From assembly GCA_046351325.1 (NCBI GenBank), contig JAXLYR010000002.1:880334-944333 (forward strand): 64,000 nucleotides of DNA, in the 5' to 3' direction. The notes under the pieces are model-generated. The model ran no database searches, had not been told where the DNA came from, and saw nothing but the letters and a program-made list of their open reading frames with translations. The DNA comes from Polyangiaceae bacterium. Its GTDB lineage: Bacteria; Myxococcota_A; Polyangia; Polyangiales; Polyangiaceae. Positions within the stretch are counted from its first letter, which is position 1. Each line of letters opens with the position of its first letter. The position numbers and the translations under genes were made by a program. Positions 9,608 to 38,389 of the stretch are shown in pieces.

Positions 9608-11236
9608 ATGACCCCGAGGACCTTGCCCCGCGTCGCGTTGGCCCTCCTCTTGGTCGCGTGTGGCGCGCCCGAGCCTCGCCACGAGGCCTCGCCGCCGCGC
9701 CCGTCGCGTGCCGTCACGATCACCTCGGTGCCGCTCCGCCGCCTCTCGCGCGAGGAGTATCAGCACGCCGTTCGCGACCTGCTCGAAGACGACGGCCACG
9801 TCGCCGACGCCTTCCCGCCCGACGAGACGTTCGGCGGCTTCGAGACCAACTCGGTCGCGCCCGTCACGACCGCGCTCGTCGAGCGTTATATGGACGCAGC
9901 CGAGGGGCTCGCCGAGCACGCTGCGGGGCGCCTCGACAAGCTCGCGCCGTGCCCCGCAGGCCGAGACGCGACCGAGTGCGCTCAGCGCTTCATCACCTCG
10001 TTCGGCCGGCTCGTCTATCGGCGTCCGCTCACAGACTCCGAGCGCGACTTGCTCTTGTCCATCTACTCGCAGAAGGCCCAAAGCTCCGACTACGCGAGCG
10101 GCCTTCGCCTCGTCCTCGAGGCGCTCTTCGAGTCGCCGCAGTTCCTCTATCGCGTGGAATCCGCGCTCCCCGACGGCGAGAAGGCCCGGCCGCTAGGCTC
10201 CTATGAGCTCGCGACGCGGCTCTCTTTCTTCTTGTGGGCGACCACGCCGGACAGCGCGTTGCTCGACGACGCCGCAGCGGGGCGCCTCGACACCCCCGAG
10301 GGTCTCGAAAAGGTCGCGCGCCGGATGGTTGGTGACAAGCGTGTAATCGACGGGGTGACGAGCTTCCACCGACAATGGCTCGACCTGCGCGAGCTCGAGA
10401 CCGCGTCGAAGGACACGCTCGCGTCCGTCTTTACCGACCAGATGAAGGCCGCGATGGTCGAGGAGACACTGCGCTTCACCGCGCGCGCGACGCTCGCTCC
10501 CGGGGACGTCGTCACGGCGCTCCTCACCTCCCACGAGAGCTTCATCAACGCCGATTTGGCGAAGCTCTATGGAGTCCCGGCGCCCGCTCAGTCCGGTTAC
10601 CAGCTTGTCAGCCTTCCCGCCGACCAGCGCGCCGGCGTCCTCACCCAGGCGAGCGTCATGACGGTCCTCGCGAGCGCCGACCAGACCTCGCCCATTCGTC
10701 GCGGCAAGTTCGTCCGCGAGAAGCTCCTCTGTCAGGTCATTCCACCGCCTCCGCCGAACGTCGTCATCATCCCACCCAAGGTCGATCCCACGCTCACGAC
10801 CAAGCAGCGCTTCGCCCAGCACCGCACCGACAAGAGCTGCTCGGGGTGTCATCAAATGATGGACCCCATCGGCTTCGCGTTCGAGCACTACGACGCAGTC
10901 GGCGCCTATCGCACAGTCGACGGAGCCTTCCCCGTGGACGCGATTGGAGAGCTCTCCGGGACGGACGACGTCAATGGCAACTTCGACGGCGCTGTAGAGC
11001 TCAGCGCGCGGCTCGCCAAGAGCAAACAAGTCCGGCGCTGCTTCGCGACCCAGTGGTTCAGGTTCGCGGTGGGGCGCCCCGAGACAGACGGTGACACGCC
11101 TGTCATCGACTCCATTTATCAAGCCTTCGAAGAGGGCCATTTCGACGCGCGGGAGCTCCTGATCGCCATCGTGAAGAGCCCGACCTTCAGGTACGCAGGT
11201 TCGGAGCCCCTCGACGCCGAGGGGGCAACTCCGTGA
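9608..11236 (+). CDS. DUF1592/DUF1588-family protein with a haem-binding CxxCH motif
   Basis: Lipoprotein signal LALLLVACG. Conserved blocks LRRLSREEYQHAVRDLL, FLWATTPD and DKSCSGCHQMMDPIGFAFEHYDAVGAYR (CxxCH). Forms the usual pair with the downstream DUF1552 gene. Family assignment is from recalled motifs. Confidence 0.75.
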   Translation: MTPRTLPRVALALLLVACGAPEPRHEASPPRPSRAVTITSVPLRRLSREEYQHAVRDLLEDDGHVADAFPPDETFGGFETNSVAPVTTALVERYMDAAEGLAEHAAGRLDKLAPCPAGRDATECAQRFITSFGRLVYRRPLTDSERDLLLSIYSQKAQSSDYASGLRLVLEALFESPQFLYRVESALPDGEKARPLGSYELATRLSFFLWATTPDSALLDDAAAGRLDTPEGLEKVARRMVGDKRVIDGVTSFHRQWLDLRELETASKDTLASVFTDQMKAAMVEETLRFTARATLAPGDVVTALLTSHESFINADLAKLYGVPAPAQSGYQLVSLPADQRAGVLTQASVMTVLASADQTSPIRRGKFVREKLLCQVIPPPPPNVVIIPPKVDPTLTTKQRFAQHRTDKSCSGCHQMMDPIGFAFEHYDAVGAYRTVDGAFPVDAIGELSGTDDVNGNFDGAVELSARLAKSKQVRRCFATQWFRFAVGRPETDGDTPVIDSIYQAFEEGHFDARELLIAIVKSPTFRYAGSEPLDAEGATP

Positions 11237-12615
11237 GCGCGCTCGGCAGGCGTCGATTCTTGGCAGGCCTCGGCGGCGGACTGGCGCTCGCGCCGTTCAT
11301 TCCGCTCCTCGACTCGCAGGCCGGGCCGGGGGCGCCGCTGCCCAAGCGGCTCGTCTTCTTCTTCAGCTCGAACGGTACAATCTACGAGAGCTGGCTACCG
11401 ACCATGGAGCGCGGTGAGCTCACCTTGAGCCCCATCCTCGCGCCCCTCGAGAAGTTCAAGTCCAAGCTGCTCGTGGTCGACGGGCTCTGTCACAAGGTCG
11501 TCCTCGACAAAGGACAGAACACCGGCCACGCCGCTGGGATGAACACCGCGCTTACAGGGCGGTACATCAAGGTCGGGGACTTCTCCCACCCGCTCTTGAG
11601 CTTCGCCACCGGGATCTCGCTCGACCAATACCTGGCGCCGAAGATCAGCGGCGACACGAAGCTCAAGTCCCTCGAGTGCGGGGTGAGCGTCGAGCTCTTC
11701 TCCCTCGAGTTCGCTTCGCTGTCTTATGGCGGGCCGCACGCTCCGCGACCGCCCGAGAGCAGCCCCTACGTCGTATTCGATCGACTGTTCCGCAATTTCT
11801 CTGGACCGAAGAGCTCGGGCCCGACGCCCGAGGAACTCGCGCGCCTCTCCGACCGACAGAGCGTGCTCGACTCGGTCTCGAAAAACTTGTCGCTCGTACA
11901 AGCAAACCTGCCGGGAGAAGACCGCGTCAAGCTCGAGGCCCACCTCGACGCAGTCCGCGGGATCGAGCAGAGCCTGACGACCGGCCGCGGCGAGGCCGCC
12001 GCCGACGTGTGTGGCAAGCCGTCGCTCACCCCCAAAGTCGACGTCTGGGTGAACGACCATATCCCCGAGGTCGCGAAGATGCAGATGGACCTCTTGGTCA
12101 TGGCGCTCGCGTGTGATCTCACTCGGGTCGGTACTGTCCAGTTCGGTCACGCTGGCGCCCAGCACCGCTTCAATTGGCTCGGCGCCGAGTTCAAGAAGGA
12201 CCCGGAGCTCTCCGCCGCCGACCAGGCCAAGGGGTTCCACGCGCTCGCGCACAGGGAGGCCGAGGCTACGTCGCGCGCCAAGCTCGTGAGAATCAATGCG
12301 TGGTATGCGCAGCAGCTCGCTTATCTATTGGGCAAACTCGACGCCATCCCCGAGCGCGGCGGCACGATGCTGGACCATACAGTCGTCGTCTGGGTGAACG
12401 AGCTCGGGACAGGCAGCCACAGCCACGAGCGGCTGCCTTGGGTCATCGCCGGCAACAGCGACAAGTACTTCAAGACTGGACAGCTCGTGTCGTTCCCCGG
12501 CGAGCCGCACAATCGCCTCCTGCTCTCGCTCAGCCACGCGATGGGGGTGGAGGACGAGGTCTTCGGCGACCCGGACTATTGCGGCGCCGGCCCCCTCACG
12601 GGGCTCACGGGTTAG
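11233..12615 (+). CDS. DUF1552-family protein with a twin-arginine (Tat) signal
   Basis: RRRFLAGLGGGLALA Tat motif. 460 aa. Start overlaps the upstream stop (ATGA-like coupling). Ends at TAG followed immediately by a T8 run. Confidence 0.75.
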   Translation: MSALGRRRFLAGLGGGLALAPFIPLLDSQAGPGAPLPKRLVFFFSSNGTIYESWLPTMERGELTLSPILAPLEKFKSKLLVVDGLCHKVVLDKGQNTGHAAGMNTALTGRYIKVGDFSHPLLSFATGISLDQYLAPKISGDTKLKSLECGVSVELFSLEFASLSYGGPHAPRPPESSPYVVFDRLFRNFSGPKSSGPTPEELARLSDRQSVLDSVSKNLSLVQANLPGEDRVKLEAHLDAVRGIEQSLTTGRGEAAADVCGKPSLTPKVDVWVNDHIPEVAKMQMDLLVMALACDLTRVGTVQFGHAGAQHRFNWLGAEFKKDPELSAADQAKGFHALAHREAEATSRAKLVRINAWYAQQLAYLLGKLDAIPERGGTMLDHTVVVWVNELGTGSHSHERLPWVIAGNSDKYFKTGQLVSFPGEPHNRLLLSLSHAMGVEDEVFGDPDYCGAGPLTGLTG

Positions 12616-15360: not shown

Positions 15361-16152
15361 TCAGCGACCGCGGAAGACGGGCTTGCGCTTCTCGACGTAC
15401 GCGGCGAGCCCCTCGCGCGCGTCGTCCGAGGCGAAGAGCTCCGCCTGGAGCTCGCGCTCGAGCGCGAGGCCCTGCTCGAGACCGACCTCGAGGCCCGTCG
15501 CGACGGCGCGCGTGATCGCTCCGACGGCGAGGCTCGCCTTGCCGGGGTGGGCGAAGCGGCGCGCGTACTCCGTAGCCTTCGCGAGGAAGGGCTCGCCCGC
15601 GGGCACGTCCCACACGGCGTTCACGAGGCCGAGCGCGACGCCGTCCTCGACGGGGAAGGTCGCTCCCTCACACATCAGCTCGAGGGCCTTCGCGCGGCCG
15701 ACGAGTCGCGCGAGGCGCTGCGTGCCGCCCGTGCCCGGCAGGACGCCGAGCGCGACCTCGGGCAGGCCCATCTTGCCGGCGCCCTTGCGAGACACCCGAA
15801 GATCACAAGCGAGCGCGATCTCGAGGCCGCCGCCGACGCAGTGCCCGTTGATCGCCGCGATGACGAGCTTCGGCGTGTGCTCGAGGCGAAGCAGCGTCTC
15901 GTTGGCGTGCAGGCAGAAGTAGTATTTGAACTGGCTGTCGGCCTCTTTCAGCATGTTCACGTTCGCGCCCGAACAGAAGAACCGGTCGCCGTGGCCAGTC
16001 ACCACGATGACGCGGACGTCGGGGTCGAAGCGCGCCTCGAGGATCGCCGCGTCGAGGTCCTTCATCATCTCGAACGTGTAGCCGTTGAACGGCGGATCGT
16101 TGAGCGTGAGGACCGCCACGCCAGCGTTGGTCTGATAGTCGACGAGAGCCAT
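15361..16152 (-). CDS. Enoyl-CoA hydratase/isomerase (crotonase family)
   Basis: VAVLTLNDPPFNGY...VIVVTGHGDRFFCSGANV...INGHCVGGGLEIALACDLRV oxyanion-hole motifs. 263 aa. Confidence 0.9.
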   Translation of the reverse strand: MALVDYQTNAGVAVLTLNDPPFNGYTFEMMKDLDAAILEARFDPDVRVIVVTGHGDRFFCSGANVNMLKEADSQFKYYFCLHANETLLRLEHTPKLVIAAINGHCVGGGLEIALACDLRVSRKGAGKMGLPEVALGVLPGTGGTQRLARLVGRAKALELMCEGATFPVEDGVALGLVNAVWDVPAGEPFLAKATEYARRFAHPGKASLAVGAITRAVATGLEVGLEQGLALERELQAELFASDDAREGLAAYVEKRKPVFRGR

Positions 16153-16458
16153 GGCGAGGGGCTTTAGTACAGCGCGCTCGGCCCTACCAGGGAGCGCGGC
16201 GCCGATCGCTCGCGCGCGGTTGCGCAGACGCTCGCGATGGGGGAAGCTTTAACGTTGTATTGGCGTAGCAGACGCAGTTCGGCAGGGTCGGCGATGATGG
16301 GTGAGGCGCGAACTCGACTATGCACCAAGCGTCGTATTCGAGCCGTGAAGACAAGTTCTTGCCTCGATGGTATGAGACGCCGCCCGCTGCCGTTAAACGA
16401 TGAACGGTGCTGCCCGAGCGACGCTACGTCGCTGGATGCCGGGCGGGGATCTGGAGGG

Positions 16459-16741
16459 TTTCGACGTGAACGCGGATGAAGTTCGACTCGCTCTCAAGGA
16501 GCTCATGATCGCGGAGCTCAACCTCACCGGTAAGACGCCCGGCGACATCGACAACGACGCGCCGATCTTCGGGGCCGGCCTGGGGCTCGACTCGCTCGAT
16601 GCGCTCCAGCTCGCGATGGCGGTGGAGGAGCGCTTCGGCGTCCGCGTTCCGGAGGGTGAGCCCGCGCGCAAGATCTTTGCGTCGGTGAACGCCCTCGTGA
16701 ACCACATCCTGACGGGCGAGCGCGTCGCCGAGAAGGCGTAG
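16459..16741 (+). CDS. Acyl carrier protein
   Basis: GLGLDSLDALQLAMAVEERFGV phosphopantetheine-attachment motif (DSL). About 94 aa from a GTG start. The ORF is also open further upstream. Confidence 0.8.
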
Positions 16742-16745
16742 CGTC

Positions 16746-18971
16746 ATGACGGTCCAGCGTCGCGCGATGCCGCGCGTGGTCGTGACGGGCGTCGGCATGA
16801 TCTCGCCGCTCGGCTCCGACGCACCGTCGAGCTTGGCGCGGCTCTGGGCCGGTGACCGGGGCATCGGTCCGCTCACACTCTTCGAGCTGAAGAACCCGCG
16901 GTCGAAGCTCGCCGCCGAGGCCGTGGGCCTCGACATGGGGACGGTCGCAGCGCGCACCGACGCGATGGCGATTCAAGCCGCGCGCGAGGCGCTGCGCGAC
17001 GCTGGGCTCGACCCCGCCGCGACACCGATTCACCTCGTCGTCGGCGGCACGACGGCGGGCATGTTCGAGACCGAGGAGCTCCTCACGCAGCTCGGCAACA
17101 TCGATTTGACCGAGGCGCTCGAGGTCCGGCTGAAGACGCACCCGCTCTCGTCGACGGTCGATCGCGTGTGCGAGGTCGCAGGGCCGTTCGCGTCGGCGCG
17201 CACCGTGTGCTGCGCGTGCACGAGCGGCGTCGCGGCGATCGCTCTCGGCGCCGCGTGGATCCGCACGGGGCGCGCGCGGCGTGTCCTCGCTGGCGGCGCC
17301 GACGCGCTCTGCAGGCTCACCTTCAGCGGCTTCGGCTGCTTGATGGTGCTCTCTCCCGACACGTGCAAACCCTTCGACGCGAGCCGCTCGGGGCTCAACT
17401 TGGGTGAGGGCGCGGGCTTCGTGATGCTCGAGAGTGAGGACGCTGCCCACGAGCGCGGCGCGAAGCTCATCGCGGAGGTCGCAGGCTTCGGTCTCGGCGG
17501 TGAGGCCCACCACATCACGAACCCCGAGCCCACTGGCAAGGCCGCCGCGCGCATCATGCGCCAGGCGCTCTCGTCCGCCGGGCTCGAGCCGCGCGACGTC
17601 GTCTACATCAACGCGCACGGCACTGCGACGATGCACAACGACGCTGCCGAGTCGACGGCGATCCGTGCGTGCTTCGGTGAGGTCCGCCCCAAGGTTTCGT
17701 CGTCGAAGGGGCAGATCGGTCACACGCTCGGCGCGGCCGGCGCGATCGAAGCGGTCATCTCCGCGAAGGTCGTCGAGACCGGCAAGATCCCCCCGACGAA
17801 AGGGCTCGAGAACCCCGATCCCGCGTGCGACATCGACCACGTCTTCGAGACCACGCAGGTCTCGGTGCCGCCCGTCGTGATGTCGAACTCGTTCGGCTTC
17901 GGCGGTACAGGCGGCGTGCTGGTGCTCGCGCGCCCCGAGCACGCACCCGTGCCCGAGCTCCCTGTCGAGAACGACGTCGTCATCTCGGGCGCCGCTGTCA
18001 TCGCGCGCGGCCGGTTGATCGAGCGCGCCGAAGACATGGCGAAGCTCCTCGCGCCTGTGTCGGCGGACGGGACTGTGCGTCGCGACGCCGACGCTCCCAA
18101 CGCCGAGGGTGATCCGACCGGCTGGCTCGACCAAGGCAAATCCCGACGAATGGATCGATCGGGCAAGCTCAGCGCGGCCGTCATCGGCGGCGCGCTGCGC
18201 GACGCGGATCGCGACGCTTCCGCGCCGCTCGATCGGACCAACGTAGCGGCCATCAGCGGCACAGCGTTCGGGAACGTAGACGGCTCGATGCGCTTCATGA
18301 AGCGGGTGCTCGACAAGGGCGCCAACATGGCGGTCCCCGCCGACTTCCCGAACCTCGTGCCGAGCTCGCCCGTGAGCCACGCTGCGATCTATTGGGGTCT
18401 CGGTGGGCCGGCGTTCGCGACGCCCGATCTCTCGGCCACCGCCGAGGCCGCGACGGCGACGGGGCTCGAGCTCGTCGCGTCCGGCGTGTCGAGCGCGGCC
18501 GCCGTCGGCAGCGTCGAAGAAATCAGCCAACTCGCGGAGAAGGTCCTCGCGCCGCTGCTCGGGGTTCGCACGGTCGCGGCCCACTCCGAGGGCGCGTCCT
18601 GCCTCATCATCGAGCGCGCCGCCGACGCGTTCGCGCGCGGTCGCACGCCGCTCGCCCGCGTTCGCTTCTGGTCGGCCGCGCGCGGCAAGGTCGCCGCCAA
18701 AGACCTGCCGGCTCCGCCCCCCAACGCGAAGGTCGTCGCCGAGCCCGCCGTCGACGTCGCGAGCTTGCTCGGTGACAGCGCGTGGGCCTCCGCTCCGCGG
18801 CTCAGCCTCGGTGGGCTCGCTGGTGAACACGTGGGCCTCGGGGGCGTCGCGCTCGCGGCTGCCGCGGCGCTCGTCCGCGGGGGCGACGCGGGCTCCGTGC
18901 TCGTGCTCGGTGAAGCTCCCGCTCGGTCGTACGCGTTCTTGCTCGAGTCCCCCGCGAAAGTCGCTGGTTAG
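16746..18971 (+). CDS. Beta-ketoacyl synthase fused to a C-terminal truncated, catalytically dead KS-like (CLF-like) domain
   Basis: N-terminal KS with active-site Cys (TVCCACTSGVAAI), His (HGTATMHNDAAE) and Lys/His (KGQIGHTLGAAG). A C-terminal ~330 aa repeats the thiolase N-half fold, but the Cys position reads GPAFATPDLSATAEA and the His-His half is absent. Confidence 0.85.
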   Translation: MTVQRRAMPRVVVTGVGMISPLGSDAPSSLARLWAGDRGIGPLTLFELKNPRSKLAAEAVGLDMGTVAARTDAMAIQAAREALRDAGLDPAATPIHLVVGGTTAGMFETEELLTQLGNIDLTEALEVRLKTHPLSSTVDRVCEVAGPFASARTVCCACTSGVAAIALGAAWIRTGRARRVLAGGADALCRLTFSGFGCLMVLSPDTCKPFDASRSGLNLGEGAGFVMLESEDAAHERGAKLIAEVAGFGLGGEAHHITNPEPTGKAAARIMRQALSSAGLEPRDVVYINAHGTATMHNDAAESTAIRACFGEVRPKVSSSKGQIGHTLGAAGAIEAVISAKVVETGKIPPTKGLENPDPACDIDHVFETTQVSVPPVVMSNSFGFGGTGGVLVLARPEHAPVPELPVENDVVISGAAVIARGRLIERAEDMAKLLAPVSADGTVRRDADAPNAEGDPTGWLDQGKSRRMDRSGKLSAAVIGGALRDADRDASAPLDRTNVAAISGTAFGNVDGSMRFMKRVLDKGANMAVPADFPNLVPSSPVSHAAIYWGLGGPAFATPDLSATAEAATATGLELVASGVSSAAAVGSVEEISQLAEKVLAPLLGVRTVAAHSEGASCLIIERAADAFARGRTPLARVRFWSAARGKVAAKDLPAPPPNAKVVAEPAVDVASLLGDSAWASAPRLSLGGLAGEHVGLGGVALAAAAALVRGGDAGSVLVLGEAPARSYAFLLESPAKVAG

Positions 18972-18979
18972 AGGGTCAA

Positions 18980-19746
18980 GCGTGCGCTCGTTCGGTCGCA
19001 CCCTCGGCTTCGCCTTCGCAGTCGCATCGAGCCTCAGCAGCGTCGCGTGCGCGGCCCGTCAGCCCGCGGCCGCGGCGTACGGCGCCGACGAGGCTCGGGC
19101 CTTCGTGGAGGCTCGTGCGATGCTCGATCGCCTGCGCGCCCCCGCGCTCGTCGGTCGCACGGAGAAGGTCGGCATCACGCTCGACGCACCCTATCTGCCC
19201 TCGCAGGTCTCGGCGCGCGGTGCGATCGCGGCGCGCCCGCCCGATGGGCTCCGCATGATCTTGCTCGGCCCAGGCGGGACGACTGCGATGGATCTCTGGG
19301 TCGGGGGCGAGCGCTTCCGCTTCGCGATCCCCGCGCTCGAGCGCGTGCTCCGCGGCGACGAGAACACCCCGCCGGAGAAGAAGCGCGGCCTCCCTGTCGA
19401 TTTCCTACGTTGGTGGATGTTGAACCCGCTCGGCGGCGAGCTCATCGCCGCGCGCCACGGCGCGAACGGCGCACTCGAGATCCTCCTCCGCGAGGACGCC
19501 CGCATCACCGAGGCCACGCTCGCCTCCGACGGCTCGGTGACGGCGCATCGCACGACGATGCTCGCGCGCCCCGACGGCACCTTCCGCGTCCTCGAGGAGG
19601 AGTGGCTCGAGGCCACGTCGCTCGGCTGCGCGAAGGCCGTCTATAGGCAGAAGACGACGAGCCTCACGGTGACCGCCACGTGCGAGTCGACGCGGCCGTC
19701 CCTCAACGAAGAGGCCCTGAAGGAACCCGAGGATCCAGCGCCATGA
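18980..19746 (+). CDS. Lipoprotein of unknown function (possible lipid-carrier-like role) between the two KS genes
   Basis: GTG start. Signal plus lipobox FAFAVASSLSSVAC. 255 aa. Translationally coupled to the downstream KS (ATGA overlap). Confidence 0.55.
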
Positions 19747-21623
19747 ACGAGCGACGTGCGAGGGCAGCGGTGATCGCGGTCGGGGCTGTCTCGCCCCTCG
19801 GCATCGGACGCGGAGCCTTCCCGCTCACGACCATCGGTGAGCCCGCGCCCGTCGCGATCGAGCGCGACCGCGAGCTCGTGGAGCTCGGTTTTTTGCGACC
19901 GTTCGCGGCGCGCGCTCCGTCGCAGGCCTTCGAGGGCGCACCCGTTGGCGAGGACCGCGCGACGACGCTCCTCCACCTCGCGCTCGATCAAGCGCTGGCC
20001 TCCGTCGCGCCGAGCGACGCGCGCGTCGCGCTCGTCCTCGGCACCTCGAGCGGCGGCATGTGCAGCGCCGAGCAGCTCTTCCGCGAGCGGCTCGCGGGTC
20101 GATCTCCGGAAGCGGCGCTCGCGCGGCGCTCGACCTACTTCGCGCCGTTCGAGGACGCACGCGAGCGCCTCGCGAGCCGCGGCCACCGCGTCGTGCGCTC
20201 GATGCAGATCGCGACGGCCTGCGCGGCCTCCACGTGGTCGCTCGGCGTCGCGCTCCGCTGGCTCGAGCGCGGCGTTTGTGATCTCGTCTTCGCGGGCGGC
20301 TACGACGCCGTCGGGCCCTTCGTCGCGGCGGGGTTCGAATCGCTCCGCGCGACGAGCGCGAGCCGGCCCGCGCCGTTCCGCATCGGTCGCGACGGCATGG
20401 CCCTCGGTGAGGGCGCAGGCATCGCTGTCCTCACGCGCGAGGGCGACGAGCGCGGCGCGCGGCCGCTCTTTTTCGTGAGCGGCTTCGGCGCTTCGACCGA
20501 CGCGGTCCACGTCACCGCGCCCGATCGCACGGGCGGCGGGCTCGCGCGGGCCGCACGCGCGGCGCTCGCCGACGCTGCGGTCGAGGCCTCGGTCTGCCCG
20601 CTCGTCAGCGCGCACGCGACCGCGACCCCCTACAACGACGCGATGGAGTCGCGAGCGATCGACGCACTCTTCGGTGAGAGCCGCCCCATCGTCCACCCCT
20701 TCAAAGCGCAGATCGGTCACACGCTCGGCGCGGCCGGCATCCTCGAGTCGCTCGCGCTCGCCCGCACGATCGAAGACGGCGTCGCGCCCGCAGCGGCCGG
20801 CACAGGGGAGCTCGATCCGGACGCGCCCGCGCGCCTCCTCGCGCGCGCCGAGGCGCTCGAGATCCCGGTCGGTCTCAAGCTCAGCGCGGCCTTCGGTGGC
20901 GCCAACGCGTCGCTCGTGCTCGAGCGCGCCGACCGCCCTGCGCGGTCGGGGCCGCGCGTGCGACGGCCGGTTTATCTCCACGCGGTCGGGCGCGCGACGA
21001 AGGCGGACGCCGCGCGCGTCGCCACGGTGAGTGGCTATGACGCGGATAAAGTATCGCGCGCCGACGCGATCAGCCTCACGCTCGCGACCGCGATCGCCGA
21101 GGTCGCCGCCGTGTCGCCTGCGAGCCGCTCGATGCTCGCTGGCGCGGGGATCATCGTGGGCCACGCGCTCGCGACGATCGACATCAACGAGCGCTTCTAC
21201 GCGCGCATCCTCTCCAAGGGCCCGACCGCCGCGGAGCCTCGGCTCTTCCCACCGACCTCGCCCAACCTGATGCCAGGGCAGGTCGCGATCTACTTCGGGC
21301 TCACGGGGCCGAGCGCCGCGCTCGCGAGCGGGGTAGGGCACGCGATCGATCCGCTCGCGCTCGCCGTCGACATGGTGGCCTTCGGCGACGCCGAGGCGAT
21401 GATCGCGGCCGCGGTCGACGTGCTCGGGCCAGCGTCCAAGTTCGTGCTCGAGAGCGCGTTCGCCGACGCAGATGGCGTCGCCGAGGGCGCGGTCGCAGCG
21501 CTCCTCTCGACCCACGCGGAGGGCGCGATCGCCACGCTCGACGCGGACAGCGTCGAGGCCCTGCGCACCCCTCGCGGCTTCGGGCAGCGCTCGCTCAGCG
21601 ACGCGCTCGACACCTTGCGGTGA
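19743..21623 (+). CDS. Second beta-ketoacyl synthase with a C-terminal CLF-like (Cys-less KS N-half) extension
   Basis: KS motifs IATACAASTWSLG (Cys), HATATPYNDAMES (His) and KAQIGHTLGAAG. A C-terminal ~200 aa has the KS N-half pattern with Cys replaced (GLTGPSAALASGVGHA). Confidence 0.85.
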   Translation: MNERRARAAVIAVGAVSPLGIGRGAFPLTTIGEPAPVAIERDRELVELGFLRPFAARAPSQAFEGAPVGEDRATTLLHLALDQALASVAPSDARVALVLGTSSGGMCSAEQLFRERLAGRSPEAALARRSTYFAPFEDARERLASRGHRVVRSMQIATACAASTWSLGVALRWLERGVCDLVFAGGYDAVGPFVAAGFESLRATSASRPAPFRIGRDGMALGEGAGIAVLTREGDERGARPLFFVSGFGASTDAVHVTAPDRTGGGLARAARAALADAAVEASVCPLVSAHATATPYNDAMESRAIDALFGESRPIVHPFKAQIGHTLGAAGILESLALARTIEDGVAPAAAGTGELDPDAPARLLARAEALEIPVGLKLSAAFGGANASLVLERADRPARSGPRVRRPVYLHAVGRATKADAARVATVSGYDADKVSRADAISLTLATAIAEVAAVSPASRSMLAGAGIIVGHALATIDINERFYARILSKGPTAAEPRLFPPTSPNLMPGQVAIYFGLTGPSAALASGVGHAIDPLALAVDMVAFGDAEAMIAAAVDVLGPASKFVLESAFADADGVAEGAVAALLSTHAEGAIATLDADSVEALRTPRGFGQRSLSDALDTLR

Positions 21624-21670
21624 GGCCAGCTCGAATTGATGCCTAGGCCCTGGAACCAGCATTTCTTGAA

Positions 21671-21712
21671 GAATTCGCGCCGCCCCTGGCGGGGCGAAGG
21701 CGGCGCGAATTC
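21671..21712 (+). terminator. Strong stem-loop: a perfect 14-bp inverted repeat downstream of the KS operon
   Basis: gaattcgcgccgcc / ggcggcgcgaattc around a 14-nt loop. Located 48 nt after the KS stop. No U-tract follows, so it is either a non-canonical terminator or a protein-binding palindrome. Confidence 0.35.
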
Positions 21713-21909
21713 TCCGTCGAAGCCATCGCTTTTGTTCCGCAGGCCCCCCATTGCCTTTTGCGTGGAAACTTCGTTTCCACGGGACTAGTTGTCTTGCCAA
21801 TTTGTCAGCGATGTGCTGCTTGCGAGCGGTCTCGCAGGCGAATAGTGTCCTTCGTAGACGGCCGTCGGGAATCGACGGTCACGCGAGTGGTTCTCGAGCG
21901 AGAGCGGCG

Positions 21910-22419
21910 ATGAAGAAAGCGCGACTGTTAGGGATGGTGTTCGCGTTGGCTGTGGCCGCGCCGCTCGCGGGGTGCGCGCAGTCGTACATCGCCAACACCG
22001 ACGTCGAGGACAGCCCCGCCAACCGCGAGCTCATCGACTTCTGCGAGAACTACCGCCGCGCCGTCGAGCGCAAGGACGTCGCGGCCCTCCTCGAGATGAT
22101 CTCCGAGGACTACTACGAGAACGGTGGCAACTCGGACGCGTCCGACGACATGGACTACGCCCAGTTCAAGGCCTTCCTCACCGGCGAGTCGAAGAACACG
22201 CTCGGCTTCTCGTTCCAGGACGCGACGGGCATCCGCCACGAGATCCGCTACCGCCGCATCACCCGCCAGGACAACCGCATCTACGTCGACTACACGTTCA
22301 GCGCCAGCTTCCGCGTGCCGACGAACACCGGCGACGCGTGGAAGCGCAAGGTCGACGAGAACCGGCTCGAGCTCATCCTCGACGACTCCGGCCACTACAA
22401 GATCGTCGCGGGGATGTGA
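21910..22419 (+). CDS. Hypothetical lipoprotein
   Basis: MKKARLLGMVFALAVAAPLAGCAQ signal plus lipobox. 169 aa acidic domain (SnoaL/NTF2-like size). Confidence 0.6.
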   Translation: MKKARLLGMVFALAVAAPLAGCAQSYIANTDVEDSPANRELIDFCENYRRAVERKDVAALLEMISEDYYENGGNSDASDDMDYAQFKAFLTGESKNTLGFSFQDATGIRHEIRYRRITRQDNRIYVDYTFSASFRVPTNTGDAWKRKVDENRLELILDDSGHYKIVAGM

Positions 22420-22430
22420 CGGCGCGCGGC

Positions 22431-23765
22431 TCAGCCGCGCGTGCGCAGCCCGTGTCGCCAGAGCAGCCGGTAGAAGTGGACACGGTCCACATCGGCGAGC
22501 TGCGCCGCCTGGCTGACGACGCCGTTCGCGCGCGCGAGCACGCGCTCGAGGTACTCGCGTTCGAACGCCGCGACGACGCGCTCGCGCTCCTCGCGGAGGG
22601 TGTTCGACACGTCGATCCCCGTGACCTCGACGCCGTGTGAGTTGCCTGCGGCGTCGCCGTCGACGGGCACCGCGGCCCCGAGCACGAGGGCGCGCTCGAG
22701 GTAGTTGCGGAGCTCGCGCACGTTGCCTGGCCACGCGTGACGAGCGAGCTCGTCGAGGAAAGGCTGCTCGAGCAGCCGATCGGTCGGCAGCTTCACCCGT
22801 TCACGCAGGCTCTCCGAGAGGGCCTCGACGAGCAGACGCAGATCGTCGATGCGCTCGCGCAGCGCCGGCAGACGAACGGGGACGACCGCGAGCCGATAGT
22901 AGAGATCCGAGCGAAATCGCTTCTGGTTGACCTCGGCGCGGAGGTCGCGGTGCGTCGCCGCGACGATGCGAACGTCGACCGGGAGCGGTTTGTTGCCGCC
23001 GACGCGCCGGACCTCGCGACGCTCGAGGACGCGGAGCAGCTTCGGCTGGAGGTCGAGCCCGAGCTCACCGATCTCGTCGATGAAGAGCGTGCCGCCCTGC
23101 GCGAGCTCGAACGCGCCCTCACGCGCGGCGACCGCGCCGGTGAACGAGCCCTTCTCGTGCCCGAAGAGCTCGGCTTCGAAGAGCGTGCTCGGGACGGACG
23201 CGCAGTCGACGACGACGAACGGCCCCGCGCTGCGCTCGCTCGCTGCGTGGACTGCGCGGGCCGCGGCCTCTTTGCCGGTGCCGGTCTCGCCGGTGAGCAG
23301 CACCGTGGCGTCCGTCTTCGCCGCGCGCTCGAGGAGCGCGAACGCGTGGCGCATCGCCGCCGATGCACCGACGAGCTGGCCGAAGCGGGACTCGGGCGAG
23401 AGCGGGAGCTTCGCGACCTCGGACTGCAGGGTGATGTGGATGCGGTCGCGACCGATCGCGAGCGTGCAGCCGAACGGAACGACGGCCTCGCGCACGAGGA
23501 TGCCCGACACGGTGGTCCCGTTGCGGCTGCCGAGATCGCGCACGAGCACGCCGCCGCGCGCGGGCGAGACCTCGCAGTGGAAGCGCGAGACGGCGGTGTC
23601 CGCGAGGCGGAGCTGCGCGCTCTCGGAGGTCCCGATCACCACGCGCTCCTCCGACGACAGGTGAGAGATGCCCTGGTCGGGGCCCTCGGTCACCTGGAGG
23701 ATGAACCGAGGGATCACCCCGGGCTCGTCGACGCTCAGCGTCTCGGTATGGGTCTCTCCAGCCAC
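22431..23765 (-). CDS. Sigma-54-dependent transcriptional activator (EBP) with an N-terminal FHA domain
   Basis: FHA signature (VVIGTSESAQLRLADTAVSRFHCEV...GSRNGTTVSG). AAA+ Walker A GETGTGKE. GAFTGA-like GSFTGA motif. ESELFGHEKGSFTGA. C-terminal Fis-type HTH. Confidence 0.9.
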   Translation of the reverse strand: MAGETHTETLSVDEPGVIPRFILQVTEGPDQGISHLSSEERVVIGTSESAQLRLADTAVSRFHCEVSPARGGVLVRDLGSRNGTTVSGILVREAVVPFGCTLAIGRDRIHITLQSEVAKLPLSPESRFGQLVGASAAMRHAFALLERAAKTDATVLLTGETGTGKEAAARAVHAASERSAGPFVVVDCASVPSTLFEAELFGHEKGSFTGAVAAREGAFELAQGGTLFIDEIGELGLDLQPKLLRVLERREVRRVGGNKPLPVDVRIVAATHRDLRAEVNQKRFRSDLYYRLAVVPVRLPALRERIDDLRLLVEALSESLRERVKLPTDRLLEQPFLDELARHAWPGNVRELRNYLERALVLGAAVPVDGDAAGNSHGVEVTGIDVSNTLREERERVVAAFEREYLERVLARANGVVSQAAQLADVDRVHFYRLLWRHGLRTRG

Positions 23766-23831
23766 GTCGAGACGCTACCACGCGGCGCGCGCAGGGACGC
23801 ATCCGCAAGACGAATCTGCTAGACGGAGTGC

Positions 23832-24923
23832 GTGAGCCGGTCCGACGACGGGCTGACGGGGGAAGAGCCTCTCGCCCCGAACACCGAGACGCTGTCCGGC
23901 TCCGCTTCGGCGCCGGGCGACGAGCTCGCGATCGAGAACATCGACGTCGGCGCCGTCGTGCTCGACAAATACCGCGTCGAGCGACGCATCGGCGGCGGCG
24001 GGATGGCCGACGTCTACGAGGCCACGCACCTCACGCTCGGGACGCGGGTCGCGCTCAAGTTTCCGCTCGGCAGGCTCGCGAGTCCGCGTCGGTTCGCGCG
24101 CATCCTCCGCGAGGCTCAGGTGAGCGCCTCGCTCGATCCCGATCGCGTCGTTCGCGTCCTCGACGTGGCGAGCACCGCGCTCGGAGTCCCCGTCATCGTG
24201 ATGGAGCTGCTCGAGGGCGAGTCGCTCGCCGACAGACTCGCGCGCGAGGGCAAGCTCGCTCCCGCGGTCGCTGCGCGCTGGGTGCGTGAGGCTTGCTTGG
24301 GCCTCGTCGAGGCCCACGCGCGCGGCATCGTGCATCGCGACATCAAGCCGTCGAACCTCTTCGTCGAGCGGCGTCGCGGCGGCGTCGAGCGCCTCAAGCT
24401 CCTCGACTTCGGCGTCGCGAGCATCCGCGCGGCGGCCTCGCAACAAGCGAGCGCGCAGGGCGACTCGGGCGCGGTCGGCTCGCCGCCTTACATGGCGCCC
24501 GAGCAGCTGAACCCCGACGCGCGGTCGCCGCAGGTCGACGCGCGCTGCGATGTATGGGCGCTCGGCGTCACGCTCTTCGAGCTCTGCGCGGGTCGACGCC
24601 CCTTCGTCGGCAAGCCCGTCGCGCTCGTCTCCTCGATCCTGAACGACGCGTCGCCGACGCTCGAGGACGTCGGTGTCTCCGCGCCCGAGCCGTTGAAGCG
24701 CGTGATCGCGCGGTGCCTCGAGAAGGATCGCGAGGAGCGCTTCCGCGACGCGCAGGCGCTCGCAGACGCGCTCGAGGGCTTCGCCGCACCGGCGCCGCTC
24801 TCGTCACGCGTGGCGCCGCCGAGCGCCCGCGTCCCCCGGCGCCGAGCCTTCGCGTGGATCGCGATCGCCGTCGTTGTGACGGCGATCCTCACGACCATCG
24901 TGCTCCTCGGTTGGGCGCGGTAG
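23832..24923 (+). CDS. Ser/Thr protein kinase (Hanks-type) with a C-terminal TM anchor
   Basis: G-loop IGGGGMADVY. VALK lysine. Catalytic loop HRDIKPSNLFV. DFG. APE. C-terminal TM IAIAVVVTAILTTIVLLGW. Divergent from the FHA-EBP gene (66 bp apart). Confidence 0.9.
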   Translation: MSRSDDGLTGEEPLAPNTETLSGSASAPGDELAIENIDVGAVVLDKYRVERRIGGGGMADVYEATHLTLGTRVALKFPLGRLASPRRFARILREAQVSASLDPDRVVRVLDVASTALGVPVIVMELLEGESLADRLAREGKLAPAVAARWVREACLGLVEAHARGIVHRDIKPSNLFVERRRGGVERLKLLDFGVASIRAAASQQASAQGDSGAVGSPPYMAPEQLNPDARSPQVDARCDVWALGVTLFELCAGRRPFVGKPVALVSSILNDASPTLEDVGVSAPEPLKRVIARCLEKDREERFRDAQALADALEGFAAPAPLSSRVAPPSARVPRRRAFAWIAIAVVVTAILTTIVLLGWAR

Positions 24924-26025: not shown

Positions 26026-28450
26026 ATGCTCGAGCGGCTGGTCGATCTTCGGGCCGGTGAGCGGCGACCGCTCACGATGATGGGCGCGCTGCTCGCGCTC
26101 GTCATCGGCGCCCACACGATCGTCGAGACCGCGCGCGACACACTGTTCTTGCGCAAGCTCCCTCCGAATCGGCTCGCTTGGGTGTATGTCGCGCTCGCGG
26201 TCGCGACGCTGCTCGCGGGCCGCGTCGCCTCGTCCATCACCGAGCGCTTCGGGCAGCGCTCGGGCTTCGTGATGACGCTCGTCGCGTGCGCGTACGTCGT
26301 CGTCCTCCTCGGTATCCTGCCGGCGACGCCGCTCTTCGTGTTCACGCTCTACGTCGCTTCGGGCGTGATGGGGACGCTCCTCTTGCTCGCGTTCTGGGTG
26401 TTCGCCGGGCGGCTCTTCACCGTCGCGCAAGGCAAGCGCCTCTTCGGACCGCTGGCTGCGTTCGGCATCGTGGGCGCAACGATCGGCGCGACGGTCGCGT
26501 CGGTGATCTCGCGCTTCTTCTCCGCTTCTGCGCTGCTCGTGCTCGCCGCGGTGCTCTTCCTCTCGGCCGCGGTCGTCGTGACGATGGTCCCCGACTCGGA
26601 GGACTCAGCGCGCGCCGCGCCCACCACCCGAACTGCGCCCGCCGGCGCGCTCCTCGGCGAGCCGTCGCTCGTCGTGCGCGGGCCCTATCTACGGATCGTC
26701 GCTGCGCTCACGTTCGTCTCCAGCATCACGGTGCTCTTCGCGGACTACCTCTTCAAATCGAGCGCCGCCGTCGCGCTCGCTCCCGACGAGCTCGGGCCGT
26801 TCCTCGGTGGGTTCTACGCAGCGCAGAACGCCCTCGCGCTCGTCGTGCAGCTCGGCGTCACGACCCCGCTCGTGCGGCGCGCCGGTGTGCCGAGCGCGCT
26901 CTTGCTGTTCCCGACGTTGCTCCTCTTCGGTGCGCTCGGCGCCATGGTCAGCAACGTCTTCGCGTTCGCTGTCGTCGTGAAGATCATCGACGGCGCGCTC
27001 CGCCACAGCCTTCACCGCGTGACCTCGGAGCTCCTCGTCCTGCCCATCGCGCCACCGATTCGCGACCGCGCGAAGCGCGTCCTCGACGCCGTCGTCGCCC
27101 GCGGCGGTCAAGCGCTCGGCGCAGGTGGGATCGCGCTCCTCGGGGTCCTCGGCGTCGCGTCGATATCGTCGCTCGGGCTCTGCATTGCTGGGCTCGCCGC
27201 GACATGGATCGTGGTCGCCGGGCTCACGCGTCGGCCGTACCTCGACATGTTCCGCCGATCGCTCGCGCGCGGCGACGACCCCGAGGAGTTCATGACCTAC
27301 GATCTGCCAGTCGTGGAGACGCTGCTCGCGTCGCTCGCGTCCGATCAGGACGACCGCGTGCGTGCGGCCATCCAGATGCTCGCGCGCCCGGACAACGGGC
27401 GCCTCGTCCCGGCGCTCATCCTTCATCACGACTCGCCCGCGGTGCTCACGCTCGCGCTCGAGGTCCTCAGCCGAGATCGCGCGCGCCGCGATTTCCTGCC
27501 GCTCACGCGCCGCTTGCTCGGTCATCGGGACGCGAGCGTGCGCGTCGCAGCGGTTCGCGCGCTCGCGGTCGCAGGCGACGCCTCCGTCGCAGGCCTCGCG
27601 CTCGAAGACGGCGATCCGACGGTGCGCGCCTCGGCCCTCTTTTTCCTCGCGTCAGGCGACGACCCCGAGGCCGATCCTCGGGTGAGCGCGCTCCTCGAGC
27701 GTCGCGACGACGACGGCGCGCGCGAGCGTCACGCGCTCGTCAGCGCGATCGCGGCTCACGGCGACGCTCGGTGGGCGCGCGTCGTAAGGCGCATCGCGAC
27801 GACCGATCGCGCGCGCCGCGGCGTCGGTGAGCGCGGCCTCGCACGAGAGATCGCGGTCGCTGCGCGCGTCACCAACGATCCCGAGCACGCGCCGCTGCTC
27901 GTCGCGCTGCTCCTCGATCGCGAGGCGCGCACGGACGCTCGCGCCTCGCTCGTCGCCCTCGGCCCCGCCGCGCAAGCCGTGGTCGAGCGGGCCTTCGCCG
28001 ACCCCAACACGTCGATGCGCCTCCGCCGCCAGCTGCCACGCGCGCTCGCCGCGTTCGGCAACCAGCGCGCCGTCGATTTCCTCGTGCGCGCGCTCGATCG
28101 CGAGCTCGACCTGCGCCTGCGCTACAAGGTCCTGCGCGCGCTCGGTCGGGCGTCCGCCGACGCGAAGCGTGGCGCGCTGAAGTTCGATCGGCGCCGCTTC
28201 GAGCGCGAGGCCACGCTCTGCTTCGCGACCTACCTGCGGCTCTTCGAGGCCGTCGTCGAGCTCGGCCACACACCCTCGCTCGCTCCGACGCACGCCGGGT
28301 CGCTGCTCGAGGTCGATCGGCCCGCGACGCGCCTCTGCGTCGGTCTCATCGAAGAGCGCGCCCGCCTCGCGTTCGAGTCAGGCTTCCGCTTCTTGCAGCT
28401 CGCGCACCGCACCGAAGACCTCGAGGCGTGCACGCGGCGATCGTCAGCAG
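26026..28450 (+). CDS. ATP:ADP-antiporter (TLC)/MFS-like membrane domain fused to a HEAT-repeat domain. Probably the 5' part of a longer gene that continues in 28490-29743.
   Basis: About 11 TM helices in the first ~400 aa. HEAT/PBS-lyase-like repeats follow (DDRVRAAIQMLAR, DASVRVAAVRALAVAGD, DPTVRASALFFLA). The protein-like sequence ends near 28440, where this frame becomes Arg-rich nonsense while the +1 frame reads protein-like. Confidence 0.7.
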
Positions 28451-28489
28451 AACCGCGCCGCGCGCTCGACCGCGCTCGAGTTCCTGGAT

Positions 28490-29743
28490 TTGCTCACGGT
28501 GCGCACGCCTTCGCTCCGCGAGCTCGTCCGCACCGCCGTCGACGATCTCGAGCCTCGAGAGCGCGTGCGCCGCGCACGCGACGCCGCGCCCGACGGTACC
28601 TACCAGAGTGCGGATCTCGTCGCGCTCCTCGATGGAACGGATCGGCTCTTCGCAGAGATCGCGCTCGCGTACGCCGAGGAGTCCTCGCGCGAGGCCGTCG
28701 CGCTCGCGCAAGACAGGTGCTCGCGGGCGAGCGGCGCGGGCTCCATGACCAGCGTCGCACCCACAATCGGCGTCGAAGGCAGCGCCGTCGCGCACGTCGA
28801 GCGCGAGCTCTTCTTGCGGAGCATCCTCGGCGCGACCCCGCCCGCTGGCTTCGTCGAGGCGCTCTCCGCGAGCATGCTCGATCGCGCTGCAGACGTGGGT
28901 GAGGTGCTCTTCGAGCGCGGCGCGCCCGCCGACGCCGTCTACTTCATCGTCGAGGGCGAGCTCGAGATGCAGGCGGCCGACGAGGAAGATCCGCTCGTCT
29001 TCGGACCGAACTCCATCGTGGGCATCCTCGACTGCAACGCGGGCCGGCCGCGCCTGCGCTCGGCCGTCGTGAGCAAGCCGGCGAAGCTCCTCGTCATGCC
29101 GTATCGCGTGTGGCTCGACGCCCTCGAGGACTTCCCGGAGTTCACCTCCACCTCGCGCCGCCTCGTCGCGCGCGGCGTGCACGACATGATGCTCGGGCTC
29201 GACGCTTCGCTCGAGCACGACGGCGGGCTCGGGCTGCTCGATCGGCCGCGACCGCTCGATGCGTCCGTCGCTGCGCGCGTCGCCCGCGGGGATCGCGTCG
29301 CGACGATGTTCGCCCTCGGGCAGAGCCGTCCCTTCGAGGCCTGCACCGTGGACACGCTCGCCGATCTCGCCGAGCGCGTCGCAGTCCTCACGCCCCCTGC
29401 CGGCGAGCTGCTCTTCGGTCCGCAGCTCGGTGGCAACCACCTCTTCATCGTCGTGGCTGGCCGCGTCCACATCGAGCGCCGCTTCGCGCCCATCATCCGC
29501 TTCGAACACCAACCAGGCGACACGCTCCTCGGCGGCGCCGCGCTCTCGGGCGTGCTCTCGGAGTACAGCGCGATCGCCGGCCCGCGCTCTGTCGTGCTCG
29601 CGGTCTCGTTCGCCGACATCGACGACGTGAGCGACGATCACTTCGATCTGTCGCGCTCGCTCTTGCGCTCCACGTCACTCGATCGCGAGCGCCTCATGAC
29701 GAAGGTCGCGGCGCGGCGATCGCGAACGACCGTTACTCCGTGA
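28490..29743 (+). CDS. Tandem cyclic-nucleotide-binding (CAP-effector) domains. Likely the C-terminal continuation of the TLC-HEAT protein.
   Basis: Two cNMP domains (GEVLFERGAPADAVYFIVEGELE...RLRSAVVSKPAKLLV; GELLFGPQLGGNHLFIVVAGRVHIE). The reading frame is open upstream into the HEAT gene. Confidence 0.7.
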   Translation: MLTVRTPSLRELVRTAVDDLEPRERVRRARDAAPDGTYQSADLVALLDGTDRLFAEIALAYAEESSREAVALAQDRCSRASGAGSMTSVAPTIGVEGSAVAHVERELFLRSILGATPPAGFVEALSASMLDRAADVGEVLFERGAPADAVYFIVEGELEMQAADEEDPLVFGPNSIVGILDCNAGRPRLRSAVVSKPAKLLVMPYRVWLDALEDFPEFTSTSRRLVARGVHDMMLGLDASLEHDGGLGLLDRPRPLDASVAARVARGDRVATMFALGQSRPFEACTVDTLADLAERVAVLTPPAGELLFGPQLGGNHLFIVVAGRVHIERRFAPIIRFEHQPGDTLLGGAALSGVLSEYSAIAGPRSVVLAVSFADIDDVSDDHFDLSRSLLRSTSLDRERLMTKVAARRSRTTVTP

Positions 29744-36870: not shown

Positions 36871-36877
36871 GTGGTGC

Positions 36878-38365: not shown

Positions 38366-38389
38366 GCGGCGATTTTCCCGTTCGACTCG

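Follow-up and report, generated by a model that had tools for sequence, protein, structure and literature searches.

We have analysed a 64,000-nucleotide stretch of the genome of a Polyangiaceae bacterium (contig JAXLYR010000002.1, positions 880,334 to 944,333), here called the window, whose numbering is used throughout unless another locus is named. Positions 15361-22419 of the window hold a module of six genes encoding an enoyl-CoA hydratase of the crotonase family (ECH), an acyl carrier protein (ACP), two ketosynthases (KS1 and KS2) and two exported lipoproteins, the larger of which, with 254 residues, is encoded between KS1 and KS2 and is labelled MID. Each ketosynthase carries, behind a complete catalytic ketosynthase (KS) domain, an inactive KS-like partner domain comparable to a chain-length factor (CLF), and KS1 is predicted to fold into a pseudo-heterodimer within one chain, packed like the KS-CLF didomain of PfaC from polyunsaturated fatty acid (PUFA) synthases. 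Because two ketosynthases with built-in inactive partners are accompanied by two exported lipoproteins, the module probably makes and delivers a cell-envelope lipid. We read it as a minimal elongation system resembling type II fatty acid synthase (FAS II) or polyketide synthase (PKS), whose acyl product would be delivered to the cell envelope or outer membrane, and we put the probability of this reading at roughly 0.5. The pairing of KS and CLF-like domains in cis is a much firmer part of it than the rest of the biosynthesis and delivery scheme.

Catalytic and partner domains of the two ketosynthases

KS1 and KS2 are 33% identical to each other, and the N-terminal half of each matches both PF00109 and PF02801. 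An earlier note on this DNA had credited both proteins with a complete Cys-His-His KS domain, and the conservation of the residues bears this out: in KS1, Cys158 (ACTSG), His291 (AHGTAT) and Lys321/His326 (KGQIGH) are invariant in 39 relatives, and the equivalent set in KS2 (Cys160, His291, Lys321/His326) is conserved in 64 relatives. With their catalytic residues complete, KS1 and KS2 should therefore both be competent for decarboxylative condensation.

The C-terminal halves are homologous to each other (BLASTP, 1e-12) and pass the PF00109 gathering score of 20.8, with 21.6 bits for KS1 and 35.1 bits for KS2. A profile built from 17 C-terminal halves of the KS1 type matches FabF (1.6e-22) from about residue 2, in the first strand, to about residue 290, and it also matches the CLF AntE (6.5e-11); when the KS1 half was compared by hhalign with the KS domain of its own family, the two were aligned over 316 columns at 97.3% probability. 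The corresponding KS2 profile matches FabF at residues ~93-197 (4e-14), and among CLFs it finds Iga12 (4e-6), the CLF part of PfaC (4e-5) and the actinorhodin CLF (1e-4).

With ~340 residues in KS1 and ~226 in KS2, against ~400 for a full KS, both partners are shortened, but not in the same way. The earlier note had described each as a truncated repeat that lacks the His-His half and in which the active-site Cys is replaced. The truncation holds for KS2, whose partner is about half-size, but the KS1 partner keeps a reduced second subdomain. Nor was the replacement of the Cys borne out in KS1: in the profile alignment the position of the nucleophile falls in a three-residue deletion, the HGTxT region is absent, and an invariant His695 (GEHVG) lies one residue off the position of His326 in the KS. 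Neither partner domain has a conserved Cys. The C-terminal halves carry the invariant motifs RARRxDR, FGxVDxS, DFPNLVPSSPVxHAxIYxGLxGP, GSVEE, SEGA and GxHxGxGG, a sign that they are strongly constrained.

The AlphaFold model of full-length KS1 has a mean predicted local distance difference test score (pLDDT) of 89.4, a predicted template modelling score of 0.93, and a pLDDT of ~90 within the partner domain. In a Foldseek comparison of this model with the PDB, the PfaC KS-CLF didomain (6RIW) came first, with a query-normalised template modelling (TM) score of 0.80 over 891 columns; on superposition, 679 residues fitted at 3.0 A. The remaining matches were single KS each, at TM ~0.50. Since the didomain ranks first and all others are single KS, the earlier proposal that these proteins mimic a KS/CLF heterodimer in cis is supported for KS1 by the superposition of its predicted model, and the pairing of the KS2 partner with its KS is supported by homology. 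The contrary view, that the proteins are ordinary FabF paralogues with unstructured tails, is excluded because the C-terminal halves bear invariant motifs and that of KS1 is modelled as confidently folded.

An exhaustive hidden Markov model search found 189 cluster representatives at <=1e-30. Among the best 150 of these, the partner is fused to the KS in every full-length representative (~660-820 residues) and is nearly always located at residues ~400-730. Library matches of ~340 residues were considered as stand-alone partners and ruled out, as they are contig fragments whose first residues ('GGMD..VL') still belong to the end of the KS domain.

Conservation of the module

A scan with exact peptide patterns of one genome per species, which would miss distant relatives, gave 75 loci, nearly all labelled as Polyangiaceae or as metagenome-assembled genomes (MAGs) of unclassified Myxococcales, Myxococcota and deltaproteobacteria. 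The named genera that carry the module are Sorangium, Polyangium, Chondromyces, Byssovorax and Minicystis. Since exact patterns were used, the restriction to this clade is to be taken as an observation rather than a proven limit.

When the window proteins were compared with these loci by tblastn, the order ECH on one strand, followed by ACP, KS1, MID, KS2 and the small lipoprotein on the other, was found in almost all of the ~60 loci whose flanking sequence was long enough, and the gene calls of Sorangium So ce56, where the module lies within 8,307,928-8,330,240 of AM746676, show the matching order. A recurrence in nearly every one of so many loci places the arrangement far beyond chance, and as the flanking genes differ among loci (in the window they are signalling and transport genes) the six genes form a conserved unit. 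ECH adjoins the ACP gene in ~85% of the related loci and is non-adjacent in ~9 of them, and the divergent ACP-ECH pair is retained even in one rearranged locus (L042). Both the dedicated ACP and the divergent upstream ECH recognised in the earlier note are real and syntenic in related loci. The genes it listed were also correct, but the sixth conserved gene, encoding the small lipoprotein, had been overlooked, as had the distribution: instead of a sporadic locus of the secondary-metabolite type, the module looks like a family-wide core trait that is usually present in a single copy.

The genes on the forward strand are tightly spaced, with 4 nt between the ACP stop and the KS1 start and a 10-nt gap between KS1 and MID. 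The MID stop codon overlaps the KS2 start (ATGA), and this overlap, which the earlier note took for translational coupling, is confirmed at the coordinates.

Lipoproteins, acyl carrier protein and crotonase

The assignment of the intervening gene as a lipoprotein was correct, for the lipobox Cys23 is invariant in 47 homologues together with Cys216 and Cys234; its fold, on the other hand, had gone unnoticed. The AlphaFold2 model of MID (pLDDT 90.1) has the LolB/LolA fold, an open, unclosed beta-barrel known from lipid carriers, and judged from this model MID is an exported lipoprotein of the LolB/LolA superfamily fold. It differs from LolB and LolA in that it belongs to neither sequence family and is encoded inside a ketosynthase operon. 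No Pfam or NCBIfam model matches MID even at E <= 1, and Pfam scans of the 47 homologues at the same threshold gave only scattered noise, with no match to DUF3261, the family of ApeN. All 370 of its database homologues are called 'hypothetical', and those with a named source come only from Polyangiaceae and unclassified Myxococcales MAGs.

The small lipoprotein has a classical signal peptide and a LAGC lipobox, and is 57% identical to the product of the Sorangium gene at the equivalent position. It has 609 unnamed homologues, and one source calls a homologue a 'nuclear transport factor 2 family protein'. The protein possibly has an NTF2/SnoaL-like fold, as suggested by sub-threshold matches to SnoaL_2 in 8 and to SnoaL_3 in 7 of 16 family members (best E 6e-4) and by the few database homologues that carry PF12680 or PF13474; a profile of the protein found no relative among solved structures.

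The ACP matches PF00550 at 9e-10, with the serine of the DSL motif at residue 43, and its GTG start at 16466 lines up with the start codons of its relatives. It scores 68.7 bits with the NCBIfam model PRK09184 (cutoff 70) and 36.7 bits with the AcpP-type model TIGR00517 (cutoff 70.45). A weak match to ACP_for_OlsHI was followed as a lead to ornithine lipids and was dropped because the OlsHI pathway has no ketosynthase. ECH matches PF00378 at 1.2e-54 with both catalytic Glu motifs intact (GGGLE107-111 and GLPE129-132), it scores under every NCBIfam equivalog cutoff, and FabM is not among its best 25 NCBIfam matches.

The coordinates of the genes and domains, called from a coding-potential filter together with the translations, are collected in Table 1. 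The window derives from a Polyangiaceae MAG: NCBI proteins of one such MAG are 100% identical to KS1, to MID and to the small lipoprotein. The GC content of the window is ~70%, and several open reading frames (ORFs) that overlap module genes, among them 16237-16479, 19047-19646 and 16524-19001 (-), were discarded as Arg/Pro-rich alternative-frame artefacts of a genome of this composition. The ORF at 22737-23822 (+) was dropped in favour of a sigma-54 activator at 22431-23765 (-), which codes better.

Table 1. Genes, domains and a candidate control element of the module (window coordinates).
Feature	Position	Strand	Size and characteristics
Enoyl-CoA hydratase (ECH, crotonase)	15361-16152	-	263 aa; PF00378
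Promoter-like element GACAAG-N15-TATGAG, 5' of the ACP gene	16345-16378	+	Tentative; from intergenic alignment
ACP	16466-16741	+	91 aa; PF00550; Ser in GLDSL
KS1, whole	16746-18971	+	741 aa
KS1 catalytic ketosynthase domain (aa 1-400)	16746-17945	+	Cys158, His291, Lys321, His326; NSFGFGG gating loop
KS1 partner domain (aa 401-741)	17946-18971	+	KS-like without Cys; first thiolase subdomain complete, second reduced
MID lipoprotein	18982-19746	+	254 aa; LolB/LolA-superfamily fold (predicted)
KS2, whole	19743-21623	+	626 aa
KS2 catalytic ketosynthase domain (aa 1-400)	19743-20942	+	PF00109, PF02801; Cys160, His291, Lys321, His326
KS2 partner domain (aa 401-626)	20943-21623	+	About half-size, without Cys; essentially the first thiolase subdomain alone
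Small lipoprotein	21910-22419	+	169 aa; possible NTF2-like fold

The promoter-like element was retained in the closest relatives when the ECH-ACP intergenic regions of 15 loci were aligned. It is nevertheless tentative, because a consensus promoter and terminator scan gave nothing above shuffled sequences, including in the region 5' of the ACP gene. An Rfam scan of the entire window gave no match. Between KS2 and the gene of the small lipoprotein lie 286 nt that contain, at ~21690-21720, a GC-rich inverted repeat (GCGCCGCC...GGCGGCGC), and the last gene may therefore be transcribed separately.

Comparison with known systems

Full-text literature searches returned no paper describing the module, and none of the six proteins has a Pfam or NCBIfam model of its own; their database names are generic or 'hypothetical'. 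The earlier note likewise could match the gene set to no described pathway, and the likeness that it saw to aryl-polyene (APE) and PUFA systems proved apt.

In PfaC (6RIW), as in the prediction for KS1, one polypeptide joins an active KS to an inactive partner of the CLF type, and the two are packed as a pseudo-heterodimer. PfaC, however, is part of a megasynthase, has dehydratase (DH) domains, works with PfaA, PfaB and PfaD, and has a full-size CLF, whereas KS1 and KS2 are free-standing type II proteins whose partner domains are reduced (KS1) or half-size (KS2); identity to PfaC is only 16-20%. A half-size partner is found in the APE systems, where ApeC, a CLF consisting of the first thiolase subdomain only and provided with conserved Arg residues for the ACP, pairs with the type II ketosynthase ApeO (PMC8358021). 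Besides this KS/half-CLF pair, APE clusters encode ACPs, another KS and, for localisation to the outer membrane, a lipoprotein together with LolA- and LolB-like proteins (PMC8253772). Of the systems described so far theirs comes nearest to the logic proposed for the module, which resembles a pared-down version of them. Compared with ApeO-ApeC, ApeR, ApeE/F, ApeA, ApeL and ApeN, the module likewise has a second KS, its own ACP, a LolB-like protein and a lipoprotein, and the KS2 partner is, like ApeC, about half-size. KS and CLF are, however, separate proteins in APE systems and fused in the module, and the starter-activating enzyme, ketoreductase (KR), DHs, thioesterase (TE), acyltransferases, resistance-nodulation-division (RND) pump and LolA-like protein of the APE systems are all absent from it.

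The KS/CLF pairs of type II PKS (actinorhodin, 1TQY; AntDE, 6SMO; Iga11-Iga12, 6KXD) likewise consist of separate, full-length partners, in contrast to the fused and shortened ones of the module. In aromatic CLFs the Cys is replaced by Gln, whereas in the module partners the Cys region is deleted or variable. Type II PKS clusters encode cyclases, KRs and DHs; the flanks of the module in the window and the Sorangium locus yielded no KR, DH, cyclase or aromatase. By sequence, the KS domains are closest to FabF (~35% identity), which has the same catalytic residues and gating loop. FabF is, however, a homodimer of 410 residues that uses AcpP, whereas in the module a fused partner domain stands in for the second subunit and the ACP belongs to a separate type. 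The prodiginine proteins RedX and PigJ also carry one active and one inactive KS-like domain on one polypeptide. In the PigJ model it is the C-terminal KS that the module domains match, but in the prodiginine proteins the inactive domain comes first, the scores of 70 and 48 bits compare with a cutoff of 900, and the pathway context is another one.

The module is a KS/CLF-type system that resembles PfaC in its fusion and ApeO-ApeC in its half-size partner and Lol-like neighbours, but it departs from defining features of each family: separate subunits, tailoring enzymes, megasynthase context and curated score cutoffs. KS/CLF pairs set the chain length of polyketides and fatty chains, and they have so far been known as two proteins or within PUFA megasynthases. 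Two small, discrete, single-chain versions with three-quarter-size and half-size partners would be compact tools for the study and engineering of chain length, and the two partners illustrate a step in the decay of such domains.

Proposed function and alternative explanations

In the scheme that we favour, housekeeping FabD would load malonate onto the dedicated ACP, on which KS1 and KS2 would lengthen an acyl chain by iterative decarboxylative condensation. The partner domains would seal the acyl pocket and, as CLFs do, set two different chain-length windows, and their Arg patch (RARRxDR) would dock the ACP. Processing of the beta-keto groups would occur in trans by FAS II enzymes, perhaps with the divergent crotonase as hydratase or dehydratase. 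In the periplasm, the LolB-like MID and the small lipoprotein would receive the acyl chain, or a lipid bearing it, and place it in the outer membrane.

Several observations weigh against this scheme. The conserved unit contains no KR, no DH of the FabZ/FabA type, no enoyl reductase (ER), acyltransferase (AT) or TE, no lipid-attaching acyltransferase and no inner-membrane exporter, and most steps must therefore be borrowed. ECH resembles an ordinary CoA-type crotonase; no other protein of the set is as strongly conserved, and it may be a housekeeping gene that happens to lie nearby. The cytoplasmic ketosynthases are linked to the periplasmic lipoproteins only by synteny and translational coupling, and the domain packing of KS1 is an AlphaFold prediction.

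Of the alternatives, the one that survives best, though we hold it to be unlikely, is that KS1 and KS2 are FAS II paralogues with a housekeeping function, acting like FabF/FabB in the synthesis of the bulk membrane fatty acids of Polyangiaceae, with the lipoprotein genes as passengers. The relatedness of the KS domains to FabF, the intact FabF gating motif NSFGFGG of KS1, the absence of tailoring enzymes, and a distribution that is core-like and usually of one copy per genome, rather than patchy as in a biosynthetic gene cluster, all agree with it. Among NCBIfam models fabF is also the best for KS1, but with the fabF/KAS II model (TIGR03150) KS1 and KS2 score 340 and 206 bits, far under the equivalog cutoff of 493.75. 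A separate ACP that is not AcpP-like also speaks against it, as does a fused CLF-like partner, which is not known in FAS II and takes the place of the homodimer partner. Finally, both lipoprotein genes are kept in the operon throughout the family, one of them translationally coupled. In a variant of this explanation the crotonase would serve the synthesis of unsaturated chains as a trans-2/cis-3 isomerase of the FabM kind. Crotonase-family isomerases such as FabM are indeed known in unsaturated fatty acid synthesis, but ECH has both of the Glu residues of a hydratase and, as mentioned, finds no FabM model among its best matches.

A second alternative separates MID from the ketosynthases and makes it the general outer-membrane lipoprotein receptor of the clade, a functional LolB. 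Canonical LolB is not known outside the beta- and gamma-proteobacteria, and recent structures from Bacteroidota (9tpm) show LolB proteins that are not homologous to it. A general sorting factor would, however, be expected across Myxococcota and would not need linkage to ketosynthases, whereas MID has the narrow distribution given above and always lies between KS1 and KS2 with its stop overlapping the start of the latter. APE clusters, moreover, provide a precedent for Lol-like proteins that serve one lipid product (PMC8253772). We therefore consider this explanation improbable.

Still less probable is a true polyene pigment cluster, that is, a reduced biosynthetic cluster of the APE, flexirubin or xanthomonadin type. 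For the ACP and KS2, PRK09184 and PRK09185 are the best or nearly the best NCBIfam models (for KS2, 224.7 bits with PRK09185, cutoff 407), and the nearest solved structures to KS2, T. thermophilus FabF (2.7e-40), Iga11 (1.2e-38) and ApeO (6e-36), are almost equally close, so that the KS2 sequence alone does not decide between FAS-like and polyene-like chemistry. The half-size CLF, the LolB-like protein and the lipoprotein recur in APE clusters, and the missing enoyl reductase would suit a polyene. On the other hand, neither the module nor its flanks contain ApeH, an ApeQ KR, an ApeI/P DH, a thioesterase, ApeD/J, an RND exporter or a LolA-like ApeL. PF13723 (the ApeC family) and DUF3261 are not matched by the window proteins; the former gives a weak match (0.0058) in the Sorangium KS2 orthologue. 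The CLF is fused instead of separate, and the uniform, usually single-copy presence across the family differs from the patchy spread of APE clusters. The polyene product class and the role of ECH as a dehydratase surrogate, both put forward as possibilities in the earlier note, are not borne out so far; KR, DH, ER, AT, TE, acyltransferase and transporter are absent from the conserved unit.

That the module is a fragment of, or a satellite to, a pfa system of the PUFA-synthase type is very hard to credit: some Polyangiaceae are known PUFA producers (PMC13311796), and the PfaC didomain is the only solved structure that matches both domains of KS1, but identity to PfaC is low, the omega_3_PfaA model reaches 72 bits against a cutoff of 1010, tandem ACPs, AT, KR, FabA-type DH and PfaD-type ER are missing nearby, and the proteins are discrete rather than parts of a megasynthase.

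The elongation and delivery scheme can be taken a step further, to a version that we regard as tentative and rather doubtful: the module would be the biosynthesis and delivery system for an outer-membrane lipid that is a hallmark of the Polyangiaceae, and MID would be an insertase of lipid and not of lipoprotein, with KS1 and KS2 as the first single-chain KS-CLF pseudo-dimers among free-standing type II ketosynthases. That the ketosynthases are so strictly linked to a LolB-fold lipoprotein throughout the family suggests an envelope lipid, and a route for its transport, that have yet to be described. The Polyangiaceae are rich in natural products, and their best-studied genus has an unusual outer membrane, reportedly free of lipopolysaccharide (LPS); a passage in PMC12971839, citing Keck et al. 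2011, reports Sorangium cellulosum So ce56 to be without LPS and to have an unusual set of outer-membrane lipids. A lipid-building module with a LolB-like protein could belong to this envelope biology. At ~6 kb the locus is small enough for direct testing.

Variant loci and neighbouring genes

A few loci depart from the common pattern. One MAG, STL-MYX13, which also carries the full module, has an orphan KS1-like didomain paralogue of 764 residues (L076:6561-8855) without ACP, MID or KS2, situated among MoxR-system and GGDEF genes. In another locus (L077:6430-11872), ACP, KS1 and MID are followed by ECH and a 3-hydroxyacyl-CoA dehydrogenase, both encoded on the opposite strand, and the remaining ~2.6 kb of the contig contains no KS2 match. 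Neither context holds informative enzymes. A complete module with 38-76% protein identity is present on a 183-kb contig labelled 'uncultured Bifidobacteriaceae bacterium' (L058, CAYJPQ010000001.1), which is most likely mis-binned.

About half of the loci have, beside the module, genes for a patatin-like lipase, a GATase-like protein, MATCAP and MoxR; these are absent from the 64-kb window and do not belong to the conserved unit. In ~35 loci the opposite strand just downstream encodes the patatin-like lipase, a hypothetical protein of 250 residues and a class-II GATase-like protein (L001:15804-18323, for example); these loci belong to Sorangium, Polyangium, Chondromyces and some MAGs. The patatin-like lipase group may be an ancestral lipid-related neighbour that has been lost in the window genome.

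In the window itself, the module is followed by the sigma-54 activator mentioned above, which carries an FHA domain, and by a Ser/Thr kinase at 23832-24923 (+). These two genes are part of an FHA-rich signalling block whose other members, at 33595-40618 (-), are a PP2C phosphatase, a VWA+FHA protein and a 1091-residue protein in which three FHA domains are fused to an ABC ATPase and an ABC-2 permease. At 31176-33581 (-), an ORF of 801 residues combines a TonB C-terminal domain with CarboxypepD_reg, Plug and the barrel of a TonB-dependent receptor, an unusual fusion of energiser and receptor. A protein of 958 residues at 26026-28902 (+) has a weak N-terminal match to MFS, below the Pfam cutoff, and C-terminal HEAT repeats. 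Upstream of the module, a gene pair of 'planctomycete type' at 9608-12615 (+) encodes first a protein of 542 residues with PSD3, PSD5, PSD4, PSCyt3 and PSD2 domains (DUF1587/1595/1592/1588/1585) and then a DUF1552 (HXXSHH) protein of 460 residues.

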